From the NCBI GenBank assembly GCA_963843575.1, contig CAWJKZ010000010.1, positions 512,001-576,000 on the forward strand: a stretch of DNA of 64,000 bases, in the 5' to 3' direction. The notes under the pieces are model-generated. The model ran no database searches and was not told the origin of the DNA. It saw nothing but the letters and a program-made list of their open reading frames with translations. Both the position numbers and the translations under genes were made by a program. Every line of letters begins with the position of its first letter. Positions within the stretch are counted from its first letter, which is position 1. This document shows, piece after piece, positions 3,146 to 61,088 of this stretch. This DNA comes from an uncultured Acidobacteriota bacterium (GTDB taxonomy: Bacteria > Acidobacteriota > UBA6911).

Positions 3146-4873
<1,728 letters not shown>

Positions 4874-54676: not shown

Positions 54677-55792
54677 ATGAGAAGCGTCTTGTGCGTATCG
54701 CTGCTCACCATTCTCTTCAGCACGTCGGAGCCAGGGGCTGGGCTGAAGCACGTCGACGTCTTTCGGTCGGGCGACCACGGCTATTTCGGTTATCGCATTC
54801 CCGCCATCGAGACCGCGGCGGATGGCACCCTGCTTGCCTTTGTCGAAGCCCGCAAATACACGCTCGGCGATCCGGGACTCGAGGGCCAGGAAATCGACCT
54901 CGTGCTGCGCCGCAGCACCGACGGGGGCGCGACGTGGTCCCCGATGCAGCTGATAGAACATGCGGGGGATTTCTGGTCGGCCGCCAATCCCTCGACCCTC
55001 GTGGACAGGAGCGACAACCGGGTCTGGGTCTTTTATCTGCGCTGCAGGCCGGGGCGCAACACCCACACGGCCCGGCCCATGACCGACGACATCCGCCTGC
55101 TCGCCCGATCGAGCTCCGATTCCGGGGCAACCTGGACGCAACCCATCGAACTCACCGCTACCTGCCGGGACATGGAGGACGGCTCCTGGCGCACCAGCGT
55201 GCCCGGTCCCGGCGGCGCCATACAGGACGGCAAGGGACGCCTCCTGGTACCAATGTGGATGTTCGAGCCATGGCGGAATTTTGCGATTTTCAGTGAAGAC
55301 CATGGTCGGACCTGGCAGCGCGGCGCTTTCGTCCCCGGCGGCCGCGAGGGAGACGAATGCCAACTGGTTGAACTGTCCGATGGGACCCTGCTCCTCGACA
55401 TCCGACAGCAGGCCGGCGCGCACCGGTGGTTGTCGACGAGCCGTGACGGCGGGCGCACCTGGTCCGAACCAAGGGCGGGGGAGACCGTGACGCCCGTCGC
55501 CTGCGCCATCGAACGAGCGGATCGGAATCGCCTCGTCTGGACCGGGCCGCGGGGGCCGGGACGCAACAACCTCGTGCTGCGATCGTCGAGCGACGACGGC
55601 AGGAGCTTCGCCGGCGAGCTTTTGATCTTCGAAGGGCCGGCCGCCTATTCGGACCTGACGATCCTGAAAGACGGGAGCATCGGGATCCTGTGGGAACGCG
55701 GCGTCGAGCGCACGTATCAGTTCGTCAGCTTTACGCGGGTGGAATCGTCGGGTCTGAGAAACCTTGCGGCGTTCCAGAGGAAAAACCATTGA
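54677..55792 (+). CDS. Sialidase-family (GH33-like, BNR repeat) exported protein
   Basis: YRIP motif and five Asp-box repeats (STDGGATW, SSDSGATW, SEDHGRTW, SRDGGRTW, SDDGRSF); AYSDL. Confidence 0.9.
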   Translation: MRSVLCVSLLTILFSTSEPGAGLKHVDVFRSGDHGYFGYRIPAIETAADGTLLAFVEARKYTLGDPGLEGQEIDLVLRRSTDGGATWSPMQLIEHAGDFWSAANPSTLVDRSDNRVWVFYLRCRPGRNTHTARPMTDDIRLLARSSSDSGATWTQPIELTATCRDMEDGSWRTSVPGPGGAIQDGKGRLLVPMWMFEPWRNFAIFSEDHGRTWQRGAFVPGGREGDECQLVELSDGTLLLDIRQQAGAHRWLSTSRDGGRTWSEPRAGETVTPVACAIERADRNRLVWTGPRGPGRNNLVLRSSSDDGRSFAGELLIFEGPAAYSDLTILKDGSIGILWERGVERTYQFVSFTRVESSGLRNLAAFQRKNH

Positions 55793-55805
55793 GCAGGAGA
55801 GGACC

Positions 55806-57103
55806 ATGAGAAGAAACCGTCGAGCTTTTGTCAAGAGCGCGGGGATGGCTTCGGCGTTTGCGGCCGTCGAATGTGCCAACCTGAATTCGTGGGCAATCGG
55901 GGCAAACGAGAAGGTCGTGCTCGGCCTGATCGGCGGCCGCAACCAGGGCCGCGCGGACGCCCTATCCGCCATAAAGGACGGGGCCGAGATCAAGACCTTC
56001 TGCGACATCGACGACGCCATCCTCGGCCGGGTGGGCGCGGACATCGGGAAAGCACAAGGGAAAACCCCCGCCACGTGCAAGGACTTCCGCCGGGTCCTGG
56101 AAGACCGCGACATCGACGCGGTGATCATCGCCACCCCCGATCACTGGCACGCCGTTCAGACGATCCTGGCGTGCCAGGCGGGCAAGGACGTCTACATCGA
56201 AAAGCCGCTGTCGCAGACCATCCGGGAAGGCCAGCGAATGCGCGAGGCCGCGCGCCGTTTCAAACGCGTCGTCCAGGTCGGAACCCAGCGGCGCAGCACC
56301 GTGCACATCCGGGAGGCGGTCGAGTACGCCGCATCCGGGAAGCTGGGCAAGATCTGCCTGATCAAGGCGTGGATCACCCAGCTGCGCGAGTCCATAGGCA
56401 CCCCGCCCGACGGCAACGCCCCCGGCCGGCGCCGATTACGACATGTGGCTGGGGCCCGCCCCGCTGCGACCCTTCAACCCGAACCGGTTCCACTACAACT
56501 GGCGGTTCTTCTGGGACTACGGCAACAGCGAGCTGGGCAACCAGGGCGTCCACATGCTCGACGTCGCGATGTGGGGGATCCAGAAGATGCGGGGCTTGGA
56601 CCGGTGTCTTCCCCGGCGCATCTCCAGCAACGGCGGCATCTACTGGCTGAACGACGCCAAGGAAGTGCCGGACACTCAGGTCGTCACCTACGACTACGGC
56701 GACCTGATGCTGGTCTGGGAGATGCACAGCTTCCAACAATACCACCGACTCGAGGGGGTCACGGCCGGCACTGCATTTTACGGCACCGAGGGCACCCTGG
56801 TCGTCGACGGCAGCGGCTGGAACGTGACCGGCAAGGGCGGAGCCGCAGGGCCGGGCGGCAAGGACGCCGGAGGCTCTCACACCGCCAACTTTCTGGAGTG
56901 CGTCAAGAGCCGGCAAGCAGCCGAACTCGGACGTGGAAATCGGGCGGCTCAGCACGACCCTCTGCCACCTCGGCAACATCTCGCACCACCTGGGCCGAGA
57001 CGTGGTCTTTGATCCCGGCACCGAAACCTTCGGCGACGACAAGGCCGCGAACGGCTGTCTCACGAAACCGTACCGCGGCCCGTTCGGCCTCCCGGAGCTC
57101 TAG
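55806..57103 (+). CDS. Tat-exported Gfo/Idh/MocA oxidoreductase; two +1 insertions (about 56425 and 56915)
   Basis: NRRAFVK Tat motif, IATPDHWH, DVYIEKP, QVGTQRRS; WLGPAP..NWRFFWDYG in the second frame; CHLGNI...YRGPF in the third. Confidence 0.88.
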
Positions 57104-57130
57104 CCCGACGACGCGCGAACCTTGACACGA

Positions 57131-57165
57131 ATGAACCGCGGGGCGAAGACAGAAACAACTCGATA
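57131..57165 (-). repeat. Family D repeat forming the 3' exon of the intron remnant; homologous to 59093-59130
   Basis: Reverse complement tatcgagttgtt----tctgtcttcgccccgcggttca versus tatcgagttgtttttgtctgtctttgccccgcggctca. Confidence 0.75.
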
Positions 57166-57440
57166 GTAGAGTAGGGGAGGGGCAACCAACGTCGCAGCCT
57201 CCCCCCTCGTCGAACCGGACATAAGGATTTCCCTTATCCGGCTCTCACAGAGACTGTCATCGCAGGACTAAGCGCGAGAACAGAGGCAGTAGGCTTCAGA
57301 AGTAGATCAGCCCAAGCCGGGCGAACAACTCGTAGAAGCTTACTCCCTGCGGTGGTCTGAAAGGCCGCTGGCTGCGCCGACGTAGATGCCGCGTCAGCCG
57401 CCACCGCGCGAACACATTGATCTTGCGGAAGGACTCTCAG
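57166..57440 (-). mobile_element. 5'-truncated group II intron remnant (maturase tail, D5, D6)
   Basis: Minus strand D5 GAGCCGGAT-AAGG-GAAAT-CCTT-AT-GTCCGGTTC with AGC triad; D6 GAGGGGGGAGG...CCTCCCCTACTCTAC with bulged A and terminal AC. Confidence 0.9.
57296..57436 (-). pseudogene. C-terminal 46 aa of a group II intron RT/maturase (domain X end, no endonuclease domain)
   Basis: Manual translation ESFRKINVFARWRLTRHLRRRSQRPFRPPQGVSFYELFARLGLIYF*, ending about 50 nt before D5. Confidence 0.8.
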
Positions 57441-57552
57441 CTCACTAGATGAACCGGGGGGTCCCGGCGCTTCCGGAAGACACGGAGAAAAACAGAAGGA
57501 CACGGAAGGCCCCCTCGAGTTCTTTGGGCTCCTGGAGCCTTCGAGGTCGGCC

Positions 57553-58948
57553 CTACGGGTCGCGCTTCATGGGTGCCGGAAAAGGCAGGGTGTCGGGCAC
57601 GACGCGTACTCCCGAGGTGAACTTGAAAGGGTACATCCCGCCGCTCGGGAACGTCAGCTCCACGAAGAACGCAGTCCACCCTTCGGCCGGCTTGGGGACA
57701 CGCGCGAGGTAGGTGCCGTCCGATCCCGGTTCCAGCGTGGAGCTCTTGTATGCCGGGCCGAGGGTATCGAGCCGGAAGTCCCTCGCCTTGGGGTTGGTGG
57801 CTTGCCAGAGATTGACGTCTGAAGGCGGGTCCTGGGTCCGGACGGCGATGGAGCCGTCCTTCTCGAATTTCCAGGAAAACCGCGGCCGCGGCGTGCCTTT
57901 GACGATGCTTTCGTAATACCCCGCAAGAGCGAGCGCCGCGTCGGAATTCTCGAGGTCATGCCGTGTGTTGGGGACGTAGCGCAGGTATTTCTCGCCTCTG
58001 AATTCGTCGAAGTAGAACTGGGACGAGTCGGGCAGGAAATACTGGTCGCCCGTCGAGTTCACGATGTACTTCGGGATGGTGAGGCGGTCGCGGTACGAGA
58101 AGGGGTCCTCGATCTTCATCAGCGCCTTCCACTGCGGCGTGCCCACCCACTCCATCAGGTGCATCGACGTGTAGTCCTCCAGCGCTGGGGCCCAGAAACC
58201 GTAGGCGCGGAAGTGGTGCTGCATCGAGCGTTCGTTGTTGAGCACGTCGATGACGAGGGGCATCACCGCGATCACCCGGTCGTCGACCGCCGCGACCGTC
58301 CACGCTGTCCAACCGCGCTTCGACGCGCCGGCCACTACGAACTTGTCCACCTGGACGTCTTGCTGGGCGCGCAGGAAATCGCTCACGGCATCCATGGCGC
58401 GGATGGCACTCTTGGTCATCGGTAAGCGCAGCGGCCAAGTCTCGTCCCCGGTCTTCAGATACTTGTCCCAGCTGAAGGCGATAATGGCGTCCTCGGTGCG
58501 CGGGCCCGCGTCGCCGGCAAACTTGAGCGGCTCGTTCGGAACGCCCCGAATTTCGGCCAGCACCGACTGCGTACCGGTGGCGATGGCGGCCAGCGCGGGA
58601 TTGGCGGACTGGGGAGCCTTCCTGCCAAGCGATCCACCCGAGATGAAAAGCAGGGCCGTGGAACTCTTCACCTGGTCGGGCTGTATTATGACGAGCCAGT
58701 GCTCCCACACCGGGTGGTCCACCTCGGCCGCCGAACGCCACTGTTGCGAAGTCAGCGAAAGCACGTGCGTGGTGAAACCGGCTCCTCTGGGTCGAGTGGT
58801 CCAGCCGGTACCCGTAGACCGAGTCCGGGGTGAAGACGTATCGGTCCAGCGCGGTGCCGGCGCCCGGCGCGATCCGCGGCCCGGCGTAGGCCGCCATGGA
58901 CGCAATGATGGCCAGACCCAACACGACCCCTGCCTTCGTTTCATGCAT
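57553..58948 (-). CDS. PhoPQ-activated pathogenicity-related (PqaA-family) exported alpha/beta-hydrolase-like protein; one +1 insertion near 58790
   Basis: Signal peptide and TALDRYV in one frame; LTSQQW, LPMTKSAIRAMD, GASKRGWTAW, GDQYFLPDS and GWTAFFVEL in the next. Confidence 0.87.
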
Positions 58949-58986
58949 CAAACAATCCCCTTAAACATTTCGGGTAATAGTACCGC

Positions 58987-59131
58987 ATGAACCCACCGGT
59001 GCCGAGAGGGGGAATCTCGTGGAGTGAGGCGACCCGACCTGTCCTCGAGACGCAGTGCCGGGAGGGGCACACCAGTCCTTCCGTGTCTTCAGTATCGAGT
59101 TGTTTTTGTCTGTCTTTGCCCCGCGGCTCAA
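58987..59131. repeat. Family D element (TGARCC...GGYTCA ends) carrying an uninterrupted copy of the intron target
   Basis: ccttccgtgtcttcag|tatcgagttg...; internal direct repeat gtgccgRgagggg; related sequence at 57449-57499. Confidence 0.6.
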
Positions 59132-59141
59132 GACATGTAGT

Positions 59142-61088
59142 TCACCTGGGCGGCGTCGGGCCGCCGCCGCCCATTGGGGTGGAGACGCGGCGAAGCTGGC
59201 CGTCGTAGGCTTCGCCGAAATCGATGTTGTGGGCGGCCAGGGTGCGGCCCGCCGCGCGCTCCAGCGCCGTCCGCGCCTTGGCGTACTGGCTGGTCGCGAT
59301 CACCTCGTCCGAGCGCGCCTGCGCCAGGTCGCGCTGGTATTGGATGACGAAAAAACTGGTGGTCGCGCCGACGCCGTACTTCTCCTGCTCCGCCTCGAGG
59401 GCCTCTTCCTGGAGCACCCGCGTCTGCCGCGCGGCGTCGTAGGCAGCCCGCGCACGCTCCACCGCGATCAGCGCCGCTTCCACCTCGGTGCGCACCTGGT
59501 GTTTCAGCTGCTCGAGGCGCATCTCGGCCTGGTTCACCTGCGCCCGGTCGCGCATCATGTCGCCGCGGGCCTGCCGATTGCTCAGCGGAATCGTCAACTG
59601 CAGGTAGACCGAGTAGTCGGGGAAATTGCGCCGCAGGAGCTGGGATAGAACGCTGCCATAGCCTCCGAGGAACATCGGATCGACCGTGCGGGTAAACGGT
59701 GTGCCCGCCAGGGAGCCAGGGGGAGGAATCAGGTTCGGGTCCCCGGCGAGCGCGTTGTTCTGCATCGCGCCGACCAGGTCGAGCTGCGGCTTCAGGGCGC
59801 TCCTGGAACCTTCGAGGGTGATCCGGGCGTTGTCGATCTGCAACCGTGCCTGGGCGTAGTCGGGGCGGGAGCGGAAAGCCTCCTCGACGAGGCTTTCGAG
59901 CAGTTCCGGAGGTTCCCGGTCGGGGATCCGGATGGTATCGGTGGGGACGATACGGGCGCCGCGGATTTCCGGGTCTTCCGTGCCGCGCCGGGTCAGGAAA
60001 TTCTTGAGGATGACCTCTTGCTGCAAGACCAGGCTCTCGGAGTTCGTGACGCCCTGGCGCGTGCGGGCCGCTTCGGCCTGCGCCCGCGACACCTCTATCG
60101 GGGCCAGCGTGCCGACATCGACCTGGGCCTGGTTGTTCTCGAGCAGGGTCTCGGCGCGCCTCAGCGCCTGCCGCTTGACCTCGGTGTCCTGCCGCACGCC
60201 CACCAGGTCCCAGTAGAGGCGGATGACGCCGGAGACGGTGGCAATGAGCTGCTGACGGAAGGTGAGGTCGGCAATCCTCTGATCGTTACCGGCGATCCGG
60301 ATGAAGCGCCGGTTGACGGCCGGGCCGAAACCCTGCAGCAGCGGCTGGGTGAAGGTAATCCCGAGCGACGACGCCATGCTGGGGTTATAGTCCAGGCGCC
60401 CCGAGTTCAGGCTCTGGCGGGCGTTGCTGAAACCCAGGTTGAACTGGCCGCCCGAGGCGAAGCCCTGCTGGAAACCGGTGTTGTAGGCGCGGCTGTCGGT
60501 CGTCAGAAAACTGGTCCCGTACGTGGCGCTGTTGGTCTGGGGCGAGGTCCGGTGCCCCGCGCCGAGTTGACCGGTCAGCGCCGGGTCGAAGGAAGGCACC
60601 TTGGGACCCGGAGACGTCACGCCGGTGCCGATCCCGGCGATCTGGCCGAGCGCCAGGTTGACATCCGTCTGGTTGTTGGTCGTGTCGGTCCCCCCGGCCA
60701 GCACGGTGCTGAGTGGGCCGCCGACACCGGGAGGGGCCTCGCGCACCGTGAAGGTGAGGCCGCGCAGCGAGGCCCCGGACCGGGTACGCAGCAGGTCGGC
60801 GGCCGCCAAAACGGGGGTGTACCGCTGGACGGCGATGTCGAGGTTGTTTTCGACGGCCAGAGCGATGGCGTCCTCCAGCGACAGGTAGATCTCGGCGCCG
60901 CGCATCAACGCCTTCAGCCGCGGGGTGTCCTCGAGGCGGTTCTGCGGCACGTCGGGCACGTGGTAAGGCGACTGGAACCACTGCCAGAAACCGGCGCCGT
61001 TATCCTGACCCGGCGCGGCGACTGCAGCGACGAGGCAGAGGAGGATGGCGGAACTGCGAACGGACATGGGCATACGTGTGCTCTTCAT
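59142..61088 (-). CDS. TolC-family outer-membrane efflux protein
   Basis: LSLEDAIALAVENNLDI, TFTQPLLQGFG, YWDLV and EQEKYGVGATT..VIQYQRDL; downstream of RND genes. Confidence 0.9.
   Translation of the reverse strand: MKSTRMPMSVRSSAILLCLVAAVAAPGQDNGAGFWQWFQSPYHVPDVPQNRLEDTPRLKALMRGAEIYLSLEDAIALAVENNLDIAVQRYTPVLAAADLLRTRSGASLRGLTFTVREAPPGVGGPLSTVLAGGTDTTNNQTDVNLALGQIAGIGTGVTSPGPKVPSFDPALTGQLGAGHRTSPQTNSATYGTSFLTTDSRAYNTGFQQGFASGGQFNLGFSNARQSLNSGRLDYNPSMASSLGITFTQPLLQGFGPAVNRRFIRIAGNDQRIADLTFRQQLIATVSGVIRLYWDLVGVRQDTEVKRQALRRAETLLENNQAQVDVGTLAPIEVSRAQAEAARTRQGVTNSESLVLQQEVILKNFLTRRGTEDPEIRGARIVPTDTIRIPDREPPELLESLVEEAFRSRPDYAQARLQIDNARITLEGSRSALKPQLDLVGAMQNNALAGDPNLIPPPGSLAGTPFTRTVDPMFLGGYGSVLSQLLRRNFPDYSVYLQLTIPLSNRQARGDMMRDRAQVNQAEMRLEQLKHQVRTEVEAALIAVERARAAYDAARQTRVLQEEALEAEQEKYGVGATTSFFVIQYQRDLAQARSDEVIATSQYAKARTALERAAGRTLAAHNIDFGEAYDGQLRRVSTPMGGGGPTPPR

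Follow-up and report, generated by a model that had tools for sequence, protein, structure and literature searches.

An uncultured soil bacterium of the UBA6911 lineage of Acidobacteriota carries the remains of a group II intron inside a short intergenic repeat, in the 64-kb stretch of contig CAWJKZ010000010.1 analyzed here (assembly GCA_963843575.1, positions 512,001 to 576,000 of the forward strand). This whole stretch is hereafter called the window, and its own numbering is used for all positions. We read the segment 57166-57473 on the minus strand as a dead, internally deleted, endonuclease-less group II intron that sits in a dispersed intergenic repeat and belongs to a lineage whose members target short-period repeat arrays by pairing exon-binding sites 1 and 3 (EBS1 and EBS3) of the intron RNA with the corresponding intron-binding sites (IBS1 and IBS3) of the DNA. 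We put the probability of this reading at roughly 0.8. The object in the window is itself genomic debris, an ordinary dead retroelement with no likely function. The host genome (G000) consists of 27 contigs, and its assembly is 88% complete.

The 3′ part of the remnant was recognized by the Rfam model RF00029, which gave the sole match at the gathering level within the window (the coordinates of all features are collected in Table 1). The alignment terminates with ...CUACUCUAC and contains the domain 5 (D5) hairpin and then domain 6 (D6) with a bulged A and a 3′ end of the AY type, by which a group II intron is identified. On the same strand lies the end of a reverse transcriptase (RT)/maturase frame, of which a tail of 46 amino acids is left. 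This tail was identical at 25 of 43 positions (58%) to residues 428-470 of the 472-aa RT/maturase from the closest full-length relative, found in the genome G007 (BLASTP E 1e-15; tblastn E 2.4e-9), and it stops at the same place as the intron-encoded protein (IEP) of G007. Pfam reported nothing for the 46-aa tail by itself. No Rfam match to domains 1 to 4 (D1 to D4) was obtained in 56900-59400 at E<=1, and about 40 nt are what is left of D1. Ribozyme domains 1-3 are required for any activity of a group II intron. Because D1 to D3 and most of the open reading frame (ORF) have been lost, the remnant can neither splice nor move.

The remnant has a length of ~308 nt and reaches 57473, beyond the end near 57440 that had been assigned in a first-pass annotation made from the sequence alone. 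The additional ~40 nt lie between the maturase tail and the 5′ half of the repeat; they begin with GAAGCGCC and continue with a hairpin and then with a stretch that is conserved in relatives. The first 48 nt of the intron were taken from 36 distinct relatives to build a profile, and its best match in the whole window, on either strand, was at 57455-57434 of the minus strand (model positions 19-40, E 0.023), which is collinear and in register with an intron start at 57473. The 5′ ends of the relatives read GUGCGCC, GAGCGCC, GAACACC, GUACACC, GAAUACC or GAAAGCGCC, each followed by a small hairpin and the conserved stretch. The window intron starts with GAAGC instead of GUGYG, and the relatives vary from GUGYG likewise (GUGCG, but also GAGCG, GUACA, GAAUA, and GAAAA), indicating that the deviation at the 5′ end runs in the lineage. 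Judged by register and location, there is a convincing case that these ~40 nt would be the intron's own 5′ end. With this end kept, the remnant represents an internal deletion and not a 3′ stump.

The sequences on both sides of the remnant are the two halves of one repeat copy. When the flanks 57511-57474 and 57165-57131 were joined in silico, the repeat profile covered them in one uninterrupted alignment (model 2-69, 36.2 bits, E 6.5e-13), indicating that the insertion was precise and that the target was neither duplicated nor lost. Aligned separately, the 5′ half extends with its final base to model position 38, and the alignment of the 3′ half opens near position 41. At the occupied site the sequence is CTTCCG|TATCGAG, the insertion following CTTCCG and preceding T, and in this copy CTCCG occurs 9 nt upstream of TTCCG. 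The 35 nt past the 3′ splice site, 57131-57165(-), recur at 59093-59130(+), differing by 2 mismatches and a single 4-nt indel, where they are preceded by a pyrimidine-rich tract (59077-59092) without an intron. The two copies face each other in inverted orientation on either side of a pqaA-like gene, like the arms of the short hairpin-type copies of this repeat, and have the private variant TATCGAG in common, whereas the family mostly reads TGACAAG or TGTCGAG.

Every element that the first-pass annotation listed as seen was borne out by these data. It had placed D5/D6 and a maturase C-terminus on the minus strand, for which the RF00029 score (50.2 bits) and the 25/43 identity of the tail speak. 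Its inverted recurrence of the 3′ flank was found at the same coordinates when re-read, the uninterrupted copy is indeed preceded by a tract in place of an intron, and the related tract noted by it beyond the opposite end of the remnant was confirmed, at 57474-57511. The joined-flank alignment agrees with its placement of the intron at a fixed register inside one repeat copy, and the inverted repeat copies that it described around the pqaA-like gene correspond to 57131-57511 and 59076-59133. The proposed insertion site, TTCAG|TATCG, has to be replaced by the occupied site given above.

To define the repeat in the host genome, the remnant flanks were compared by BLAST with the 27 contigs, which gave many partial matches. 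A repeat profile was then built from 19 of 23 candidate loci; we set aside two short matches of doubtful standing and the two halves that the intron separates. With this profile, nhmmer returned 58 matches at E<=0.01 across many contigs, 59076-59133 among them, indicating a dispersed repeat and not a local duplication, in agreement with the multicopy intergenic repeat of the first-pass annotation. The core of the repeat is an array of TTCCGTG-type units with a spacing of 9-10 nt and a conserved tail at the end, and clusters of TCCGTG (at least 2 within 12 nt) were observed 67 times against ~13 expected. An inverted CACGGA was present no more than 90 nt upstream in 24 of the 58 matches, compared with a background of ~3%, suggesting that about two fifths of the copies are of a hairpin type. 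The intron-bearing copy is without such an arm over the same distance. Together, the 58 matches make up 0.065% of the genome and contain only 81 (1.3%) of the 6273 CTTCCG sites counted genome-wide.

The genome G007 harbors one full-length copy of the intron (1981 nt) and one internally deleted copy, copy B, in which both ends are kept as in the window remnant. The 472-aa IEP has an RVT_1 domain at 137-359 and a GIIM domain at 384-450 and no endonuclease domain, which bears out the earlier description of the window intron as an endonuclease-minus type. Both copies lie at the same register of a composite repeat of ~210 nt, which is bounded by the short direct repeat CCGGAGAG (locus L013, 2190-2347 and 4329-4373) and gave at least 40 matches per flank (the best 40 of 52 and 46 candidates, respectively). 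The intron sequences of the two copies were 99.4% identical over 1533 nt versus 90% over 174 nt for the surrounding repeat, indicating that the intron entered old repeat copies on two separate occasions. GTCTTCG forms the end of the 5′ exon, and a terminal loop of D1 contains CGAAG; an 8-bp stem ends 6 nt before the insertion site. An intron start at a GTGCG located 105 nt upstream was considered and rejected, because this stretch is part of the host repeat: it is 90% identical between the copies (99.4% for the intron) and is present in empty copies.

The target rule was examined in two sets of relatives. The genome-collection set comprised the best 80 of 523 relatives retrieved with the G007 RT (59-100% identity), and 45 introns had usable ends. 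D5/D6 was found in 78 of the 80 loci and the 5′ region in 74. Among 34 distinct EBS1/IBS1 combinations, 27 paired at 5/5 positions and all 34 at no fewer than 4; the set contained 14 different EBS1 5-mers, and 0/5000 permutations reached the observed mean pairing. For EBS3-IBS3, one column of D1 paired with the first base of the 3′ exon in 28 of 29 cases (G-C in 9, A-T in 19). Moreover, at 26 of 43 sites the IBS1 5-mer recurred with at most 1 mismatch 7-11 nt upstream, most often at 9 nt, as compared with 865 of 8590 random positions in the same loci. The metagenome set was independent of the collection and involved no manual changes of boundaries. Here, 26 of 37 distinct sites paired at 5/5 positions and 33 at 4 or more, again with 0/5000 permutations reaching the observed mean, and the IBS1 5-mer recurred upstream at 27 of 36 sites. 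Recurrence of IBS1 was enriched in both independent collections, amounting to 60-75% versus 10% at random. These comparisons support the conclusion that living relatives enter repeats of this kind through EBS1-IBS1 pairing.

The metagenome loci L166 and L192 lie in TTCCGTG/CACGGAA arrays like that of the window, and the EBS1 of L172 reads TTCCG. In two further genomes, the exon motif itself was dispersed, with 17 and 24 extra matches. Three loci, L076 (at about 4434-4443), L077, and L177, contain tandem introns that are 8-9 nt apart, the length of one repeat unit, as if adjacent units of an array had each been invaded; the records of these tandem introns are from Blastocatellia, Bipolaricaulota, and one metagenome contig. 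According to their records, the hosts of the relatives include Acidobacteriota, Planctomycetota, Verrucomicrobiota, Desulfobacterota, Pseudomonadota, Chloroflexota, and others. Many members of the lineage (L053-L212) start with GAGCG, GUACA, GAAUA, GAAAA or GGACA instead of GUGYG. Copies within a genome are near-identical despite such starts, which suggests recent mobility. A scan of the first 330 nt, crude and dependent on the alignment, revealed no covarying EBS2-IBS2 (best z 1.5). Inverted partners of the final 12 exon bases were infrequent: 5 of 26 sites had one in the 120 nt upstream, and 3 of 26 had one downstream.

We also searched for the same lineage in the host and its close relatives. 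Three other group II intron loci exist in G000, at C9:75175-77112(+), C24:402022-404000(-), and C17:1-1645. One of them has an open RT frame of 469 aa, one has a broken RT, and one, on C17, is located at the end of the contig. Their RTs shared 42-49% identity with that of G007, and the C9 and C24 introns have flanks outside the repeat studied here. These introns belong to other lineages and are uninformative on this one. Intron matches were obtained in 14 of 61 related genomes at E<=0.001 and in 3 of 51 family genomes at E<=1e-8, G000 itself included. No near-identical full-length copy was found among the 61 relatives, the 51 family genomes, the genome collection (searched via the RT) or the metagenome contigs (searched via the tail). 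In the sister species G001, both flanking genes are kept at 85-86%, and the intergenic DNA is rearranged, with an extra ORF and other repeats; the right repeat arm is absent and the left arm degenerate. The sister genome (L017) has no counterpart of window 59000-59340, which holds the uninterrupted repeat copy and the 3′ end of a TolC-like outer-membrane gene. The two closest D5/D6 relatives, in G001 (L015, 3300-3549) and G049 (L016, 3500-3677), are short stumps of D5/D6 only. In both genomes, which belong to different families, the stump lies right behind the stop codon of a gene for a TonB-dependent receptor.

Several observations weigh against our reading. With D1 deleted, the EBS1 of the window copy is unreadable, and the nearby empty copy has an A at position -2 that mismatches the inferred EBS1. 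The search of the whole genome for full-length copies, which the first-pass annotation had recommended, found no second copy of this lineage in the 27 contigs, so that targeting in this genome is a single event; at an assembly completeness of 88%, a live copy may have escaped assembly. The closest relatives in the other genomes, the genome collection, and the metagenome contigs reached only 83% (D5/D6 alone) or 74% (the 46-aa tail). In the closest D5/D6 relative, that of G001, the 3′ flank occurs only once in the genome, and this sister species offers no clean empty orthologous site. The match at the 5′ end is weak by itself, with the E of 0.023 in the window being non-significant genome-wide, and 91 of 500 shuffles equaled the 5′-end score against the whole G007 intron. 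Regarding the relatives, 17 of 43 collection sites and 9 of 36 metagenome sites are without upstream recurrence of IBS1. All 7 copies in the genome G076 are among the 17, and they follow a hairpin instead. Furthermore, sites from one genome are non-independent, and for 4 collection loci the intron start was moved by 1-2 nt after inspection of the alignment, which favors pairing. Thus, the homing into a repeat that had been claimed for this intron stands in part: relatives do so by EBS1-IBS1 pairing, but the window copy is alone in its assembly and the flank of its relative in G001 is unique.

Other explanations were weighed on the same data. An intron that specifies about 6-7 bases might insert widely, with only the copies in harmless intergenic repeats persisting, so that the association with arrays would reflect a filter and not a preference. 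The shortness of the RNA-specified contacts (5-6 bp for EBS1 and 1 bp for EBS3, with no EBS2 pairing detected), the single event in this genome, and the presence of some relatives in non-repetitive flanks (17 of 43 sites lack recurrence) are consistent with such survival. However, a repeat that amounts to 0.065% of the genome and 1.3% of the CTTCCG sites is far below the intergenic fraction, both G007 copies occupy one register of one repeat, adjacent array units were each invaded, and the enrichment of 60-75% versus 10% appeared in two independent collections. We regard chance followed by survival as improbable. A similarly small probability is given to structural targeting of the class C type, in which a DNA stem-loop would be recognized and the arrays would be incidental parts of hairpins. 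The G007 RT is closest to the IIC structures 6ar1 and 7uim, a stem lies 6 nt before the G007 site, all 7 G076 copies abut a stem, 24 of 58 repeat copies have an inverted arm, and no EBS2 was found. Yet the window copy lacks an inverted CACGGA over the 90 nt upstream as well as, by eye, any adjacent hairpin, and its partner arm is 1.6 kb away; in hairpin-type copies, the insertion site falls inside the 3′ arm and not after it. Only 5 of 26 sites have an inverted partner upstream, and likeness to IIC RTs is undiagnostic because classes F and g1 form the outgroup of class C (PMC4748821).

The remaining two alternatives concern the window itself. If the remnant were a 5′-truncated copy left by incomplete reverse transcription, the 40 nt would be unrelated filler. 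The similarity at the 5′ end is short and weak in isolation, and truncated intron fragments are common, the G001 and G049 stumps being examples. But on both strands of the 64 kb, the 5′-end profile has its best match at exactly this place and in register, the first bases GAAGCGCC and the hairpin match variants of the relatives, the 5′ half of the repeat stops exactly at the register where the 3′ half resumes, and copy B of G007 has the same type of deletion with both ends kept. This origin seems very unlikely to us. The two inverted copies could also be the arms of one larger palindromic unit that encloses the pqaA-like gene, with the intron having simply struck one arm and the bracketing being informative about the repeat, not about the intron; the two copies are oriented towards each other like the arms of short hairpin-type copies at other loci of this genome, and both carry the TATCGAG variant. 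We consider this doubtful, though with a chance that deserves mention. The pqaA-like gene and its upstream neighbor are syntenic at 85-86% in G001, where the right arm is absent and the left arm degenerate, so the gene is not obviously mobile cargo, and two copies 2 kb apart among at least 58 are unremarkable by themselves. Our preferred reading remains an internally deleted intron in one copy of a dispersed repeat.

Regarding the class of the intron, the best matches of the G007 RT among solved structures were IIC enzymes (6ar1, 2.4e-58; 7uim, 1e-51), followed by LtrA (2e-41). This likeness does not show membership, since PMC4748821 roots class C with classes F and g1 as outgroup. Matches in Protein Atlas carried family names only, without class information. 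The lineage probably corresponds to the core of bacterial class F, an assignment that rests on published descriptions and not on a tree. Toro and Martinez-Abarca (2013, PMC3552965) define a core cluster of class F that unites Ge.ur.I1 and Pe.th.I2 with So.us.I2, an intron of the acidobacterium Solibacter. Like class F, the present lineage has an IEP without an endonuclease domain (RVT_1 plus GIIM) and, judged by record titles, hosts among Acidobacteria (the Solibacter group) and deltaproteobacteria; the 3′ end AC of class F is found in the window copy. Ge.ur.I1-1 is reported to splice also 9 and 19 nt upstream of the expected 5′ site, after variants of IBS1 (Nagy et al. 2013, PMC3753933). The resulting exon periodicity of 9-10 nt equals that of this lineage, although it is one published example and not a formal class criterion. 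In that paper, the repeated IBS1 is treated as an oddity of splicing, and the word "repeat" is absent from its main text. Two differences were noted: an apparent EBS2-IBS2 pairing has been published for class F (PMC3552965, PMC3753933) and none was found in our scan of this lineage, and the window copy, unlike class F introns, is a dead remnant.

The comparison with class C made in the first-pass annotation is probably wrong in detail, since no hairpin stands beside the window site and published class F fits better. Class C (IIC) introns insert after intrinsic terminators or into attC sites (Zimmerly and Semper 2015, PMC4424553). They share with this lineage the lack of an endonuclease, a short IBS1, EBS3-IBS3 pairing, and targets that are many-copy extragenic motifs. 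Adjacency to a stem-loop was seen in G007 and the 7 G076 copies, and by eye no hairpin of the IIC kind was visible beside the window site. The lineage differs from class C in that most sites lie inside direct-repeat arrays and EBS1 follows the sequence of the repeat unit. A scan of 56950-59250 for terminators and promoters was uninformative, with 1 terminator-like match (~25 nt upstream of the site) versus 1.5 in shuffles and 0 promoters.

The repeat itself resembles REP/BIME elements and heptamer-array repeats in being short, dispersed, intergenic, partly hairpin-forming, and lineage-specific in sequence. Unlike REP/BIME, it is made of TTCCGTG units with a 9-10-nt period. A parallel for the persistence of introns in multi-copy non-coding DNA is provided by Methanosarcina acetivorans, whose nested introns are described as offering a "perpetual homing site" (PMC4424553); there the target is other introns, whereas here it is a host repeat family.

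A mechanism consistent with these sequence comparisons can be proposed. In the relatives, the DNA site is chosen by 5-6 bp of EBS1-IBS1 and 1 bp of EBS3-IBS3 pairing, and EBS1 is tuned in each host to the host's own short-period repeat unit. The pyrimidine-rich strand of the arrays offers a landing pad that is present in many copies outside genes. The window copy may have arrived by the same route, with an EBS1 of the CGGAAG type and with priming from the replication fork, and may have been killed by a later internal deletion. Replication-fork priming is described for endonuclease-less introns in PMC4424553. That only 81 of the 6273 CTTCCG sites are in the repeat makes an arrival there through IBS1 alone unlikely and suggests either that there is extra recognition or that selection removes other insertions; candidates for the former would be protein contacts, single-stranded or hairpin DNA, or several adjacent sites.

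Table 1. Positions in the window of the intron remnant, the repeat copies and the elements between them
Feature	Position	Strand	Evidence
3′ exon, the 3′ half of the split repeat copy; begins TATCGAG	57131-57165	-	Read; profile positions 41-73 when aligned alone; recurs at 59093-59130
Group II domains 5 and 6, with AC at the 3′ splice site	57166-57246	-	RF00029, 50.2 bits (gathering score 40)
Non-coding stretch from maturase stop to D5 (domain 4, 3′ side)	57247-57295	-	By position; ~70% alignment to the G007 intron
Last 46 codons of RT/maturase and stop codon; another stop codon directly upstream	57296-57436	-	Frame translation
Internal deletion junction	~57430-57440	-	
Putative kept 5′ end of the intron, ~40 nt; begins GAAGCGCC	57434-57473	-	5′-end profile; alignment to the G007 intron
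5′ exon, the 5′ half of the split repeat copy: two TCCGTG units 9 nt apart, last bases CTTCCG	57474-57511	-	Profile positions 2-38
Second dispersed module with a small perfect palindrome (GGCTCC.GGAGCC), directly upstream of the split repeat copy	57512-57552	-	
PhoPQ-activated pathogenicity-related (PqaA-like) gene between the repeat arms, context only	57553-58951	-	Pfam PF10142, E 1.7e-123
Uninterrupted paralogous repeat copy; reads CTTCAG|TATCGAG	59076-59133	+	nhmmer match C10:571076-571133, E 2.0e-8

The surroundings of the split copy contain further elements. The second module has partial copies detected by BLAST within the genome, for example, 32 nt at 91% on C18 and 33 nt at 88% on C16, and it also precedes other repeat copies (on C16, C17, C18, and C21). 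The PqaA-like gene appears to be frameshifted near its 5′ end: its 463-aa ORF has an implausible N-terminus, and an overlapping ORF at 57956-58951 starts with a plausible signal peptide. The ortholog in G001 is one intact ORF of 477 aa, and the frameshift in the window may be either real or a sequencing error. Upstream of the remnant, a Gfo/Idh/MocA oxidoreductase at 55764-57103(+) extends over three frames (ORFs beginning at 55764, and at 56443-57012 and 56933-57103), with its N- and C-terminal Pfam domains in different frames, implying two frameshifts or assembly errors.

Three target specificities of bacterial group II introns are given in PMC4424553, namely homing sites, terminators, and attC. 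No description of repeat-array targeting was found in a literature search whose reach ended short of supplementary tables and Simon et al. 2008, and this habit of the lineage is apparently undescribed so far. On balance, we lean towards regarding it as a fourth specificity, directed to the pyrimidine-rich strand of dispersed arrays of 9-10-nt "heptad" units, with EBS1 retuned in each host. It would represent a long-lived pairing of introns with host repeats, two classes of selfish or structural DNA, across at least 8 phyla, and the window would hold a fossil of this pairing. The value of the finding lies beyond the object in the window, in a testable rule at the level of the lineage for a poorly studied class of introns. 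Repeat arrays would be added to homing sites, terminators, and attC as targets, and the use of alternative 5′ splice sites by Ge.ur.I1-1, as reported in PMC3753933, would be accounted for by the rule. The widespread intergenic repeats of the heptad type would gain one concrete biological role, that of landing pads, and the rule suggests a natural multi-copy safe-harbor logic for intron-based gene targeting.

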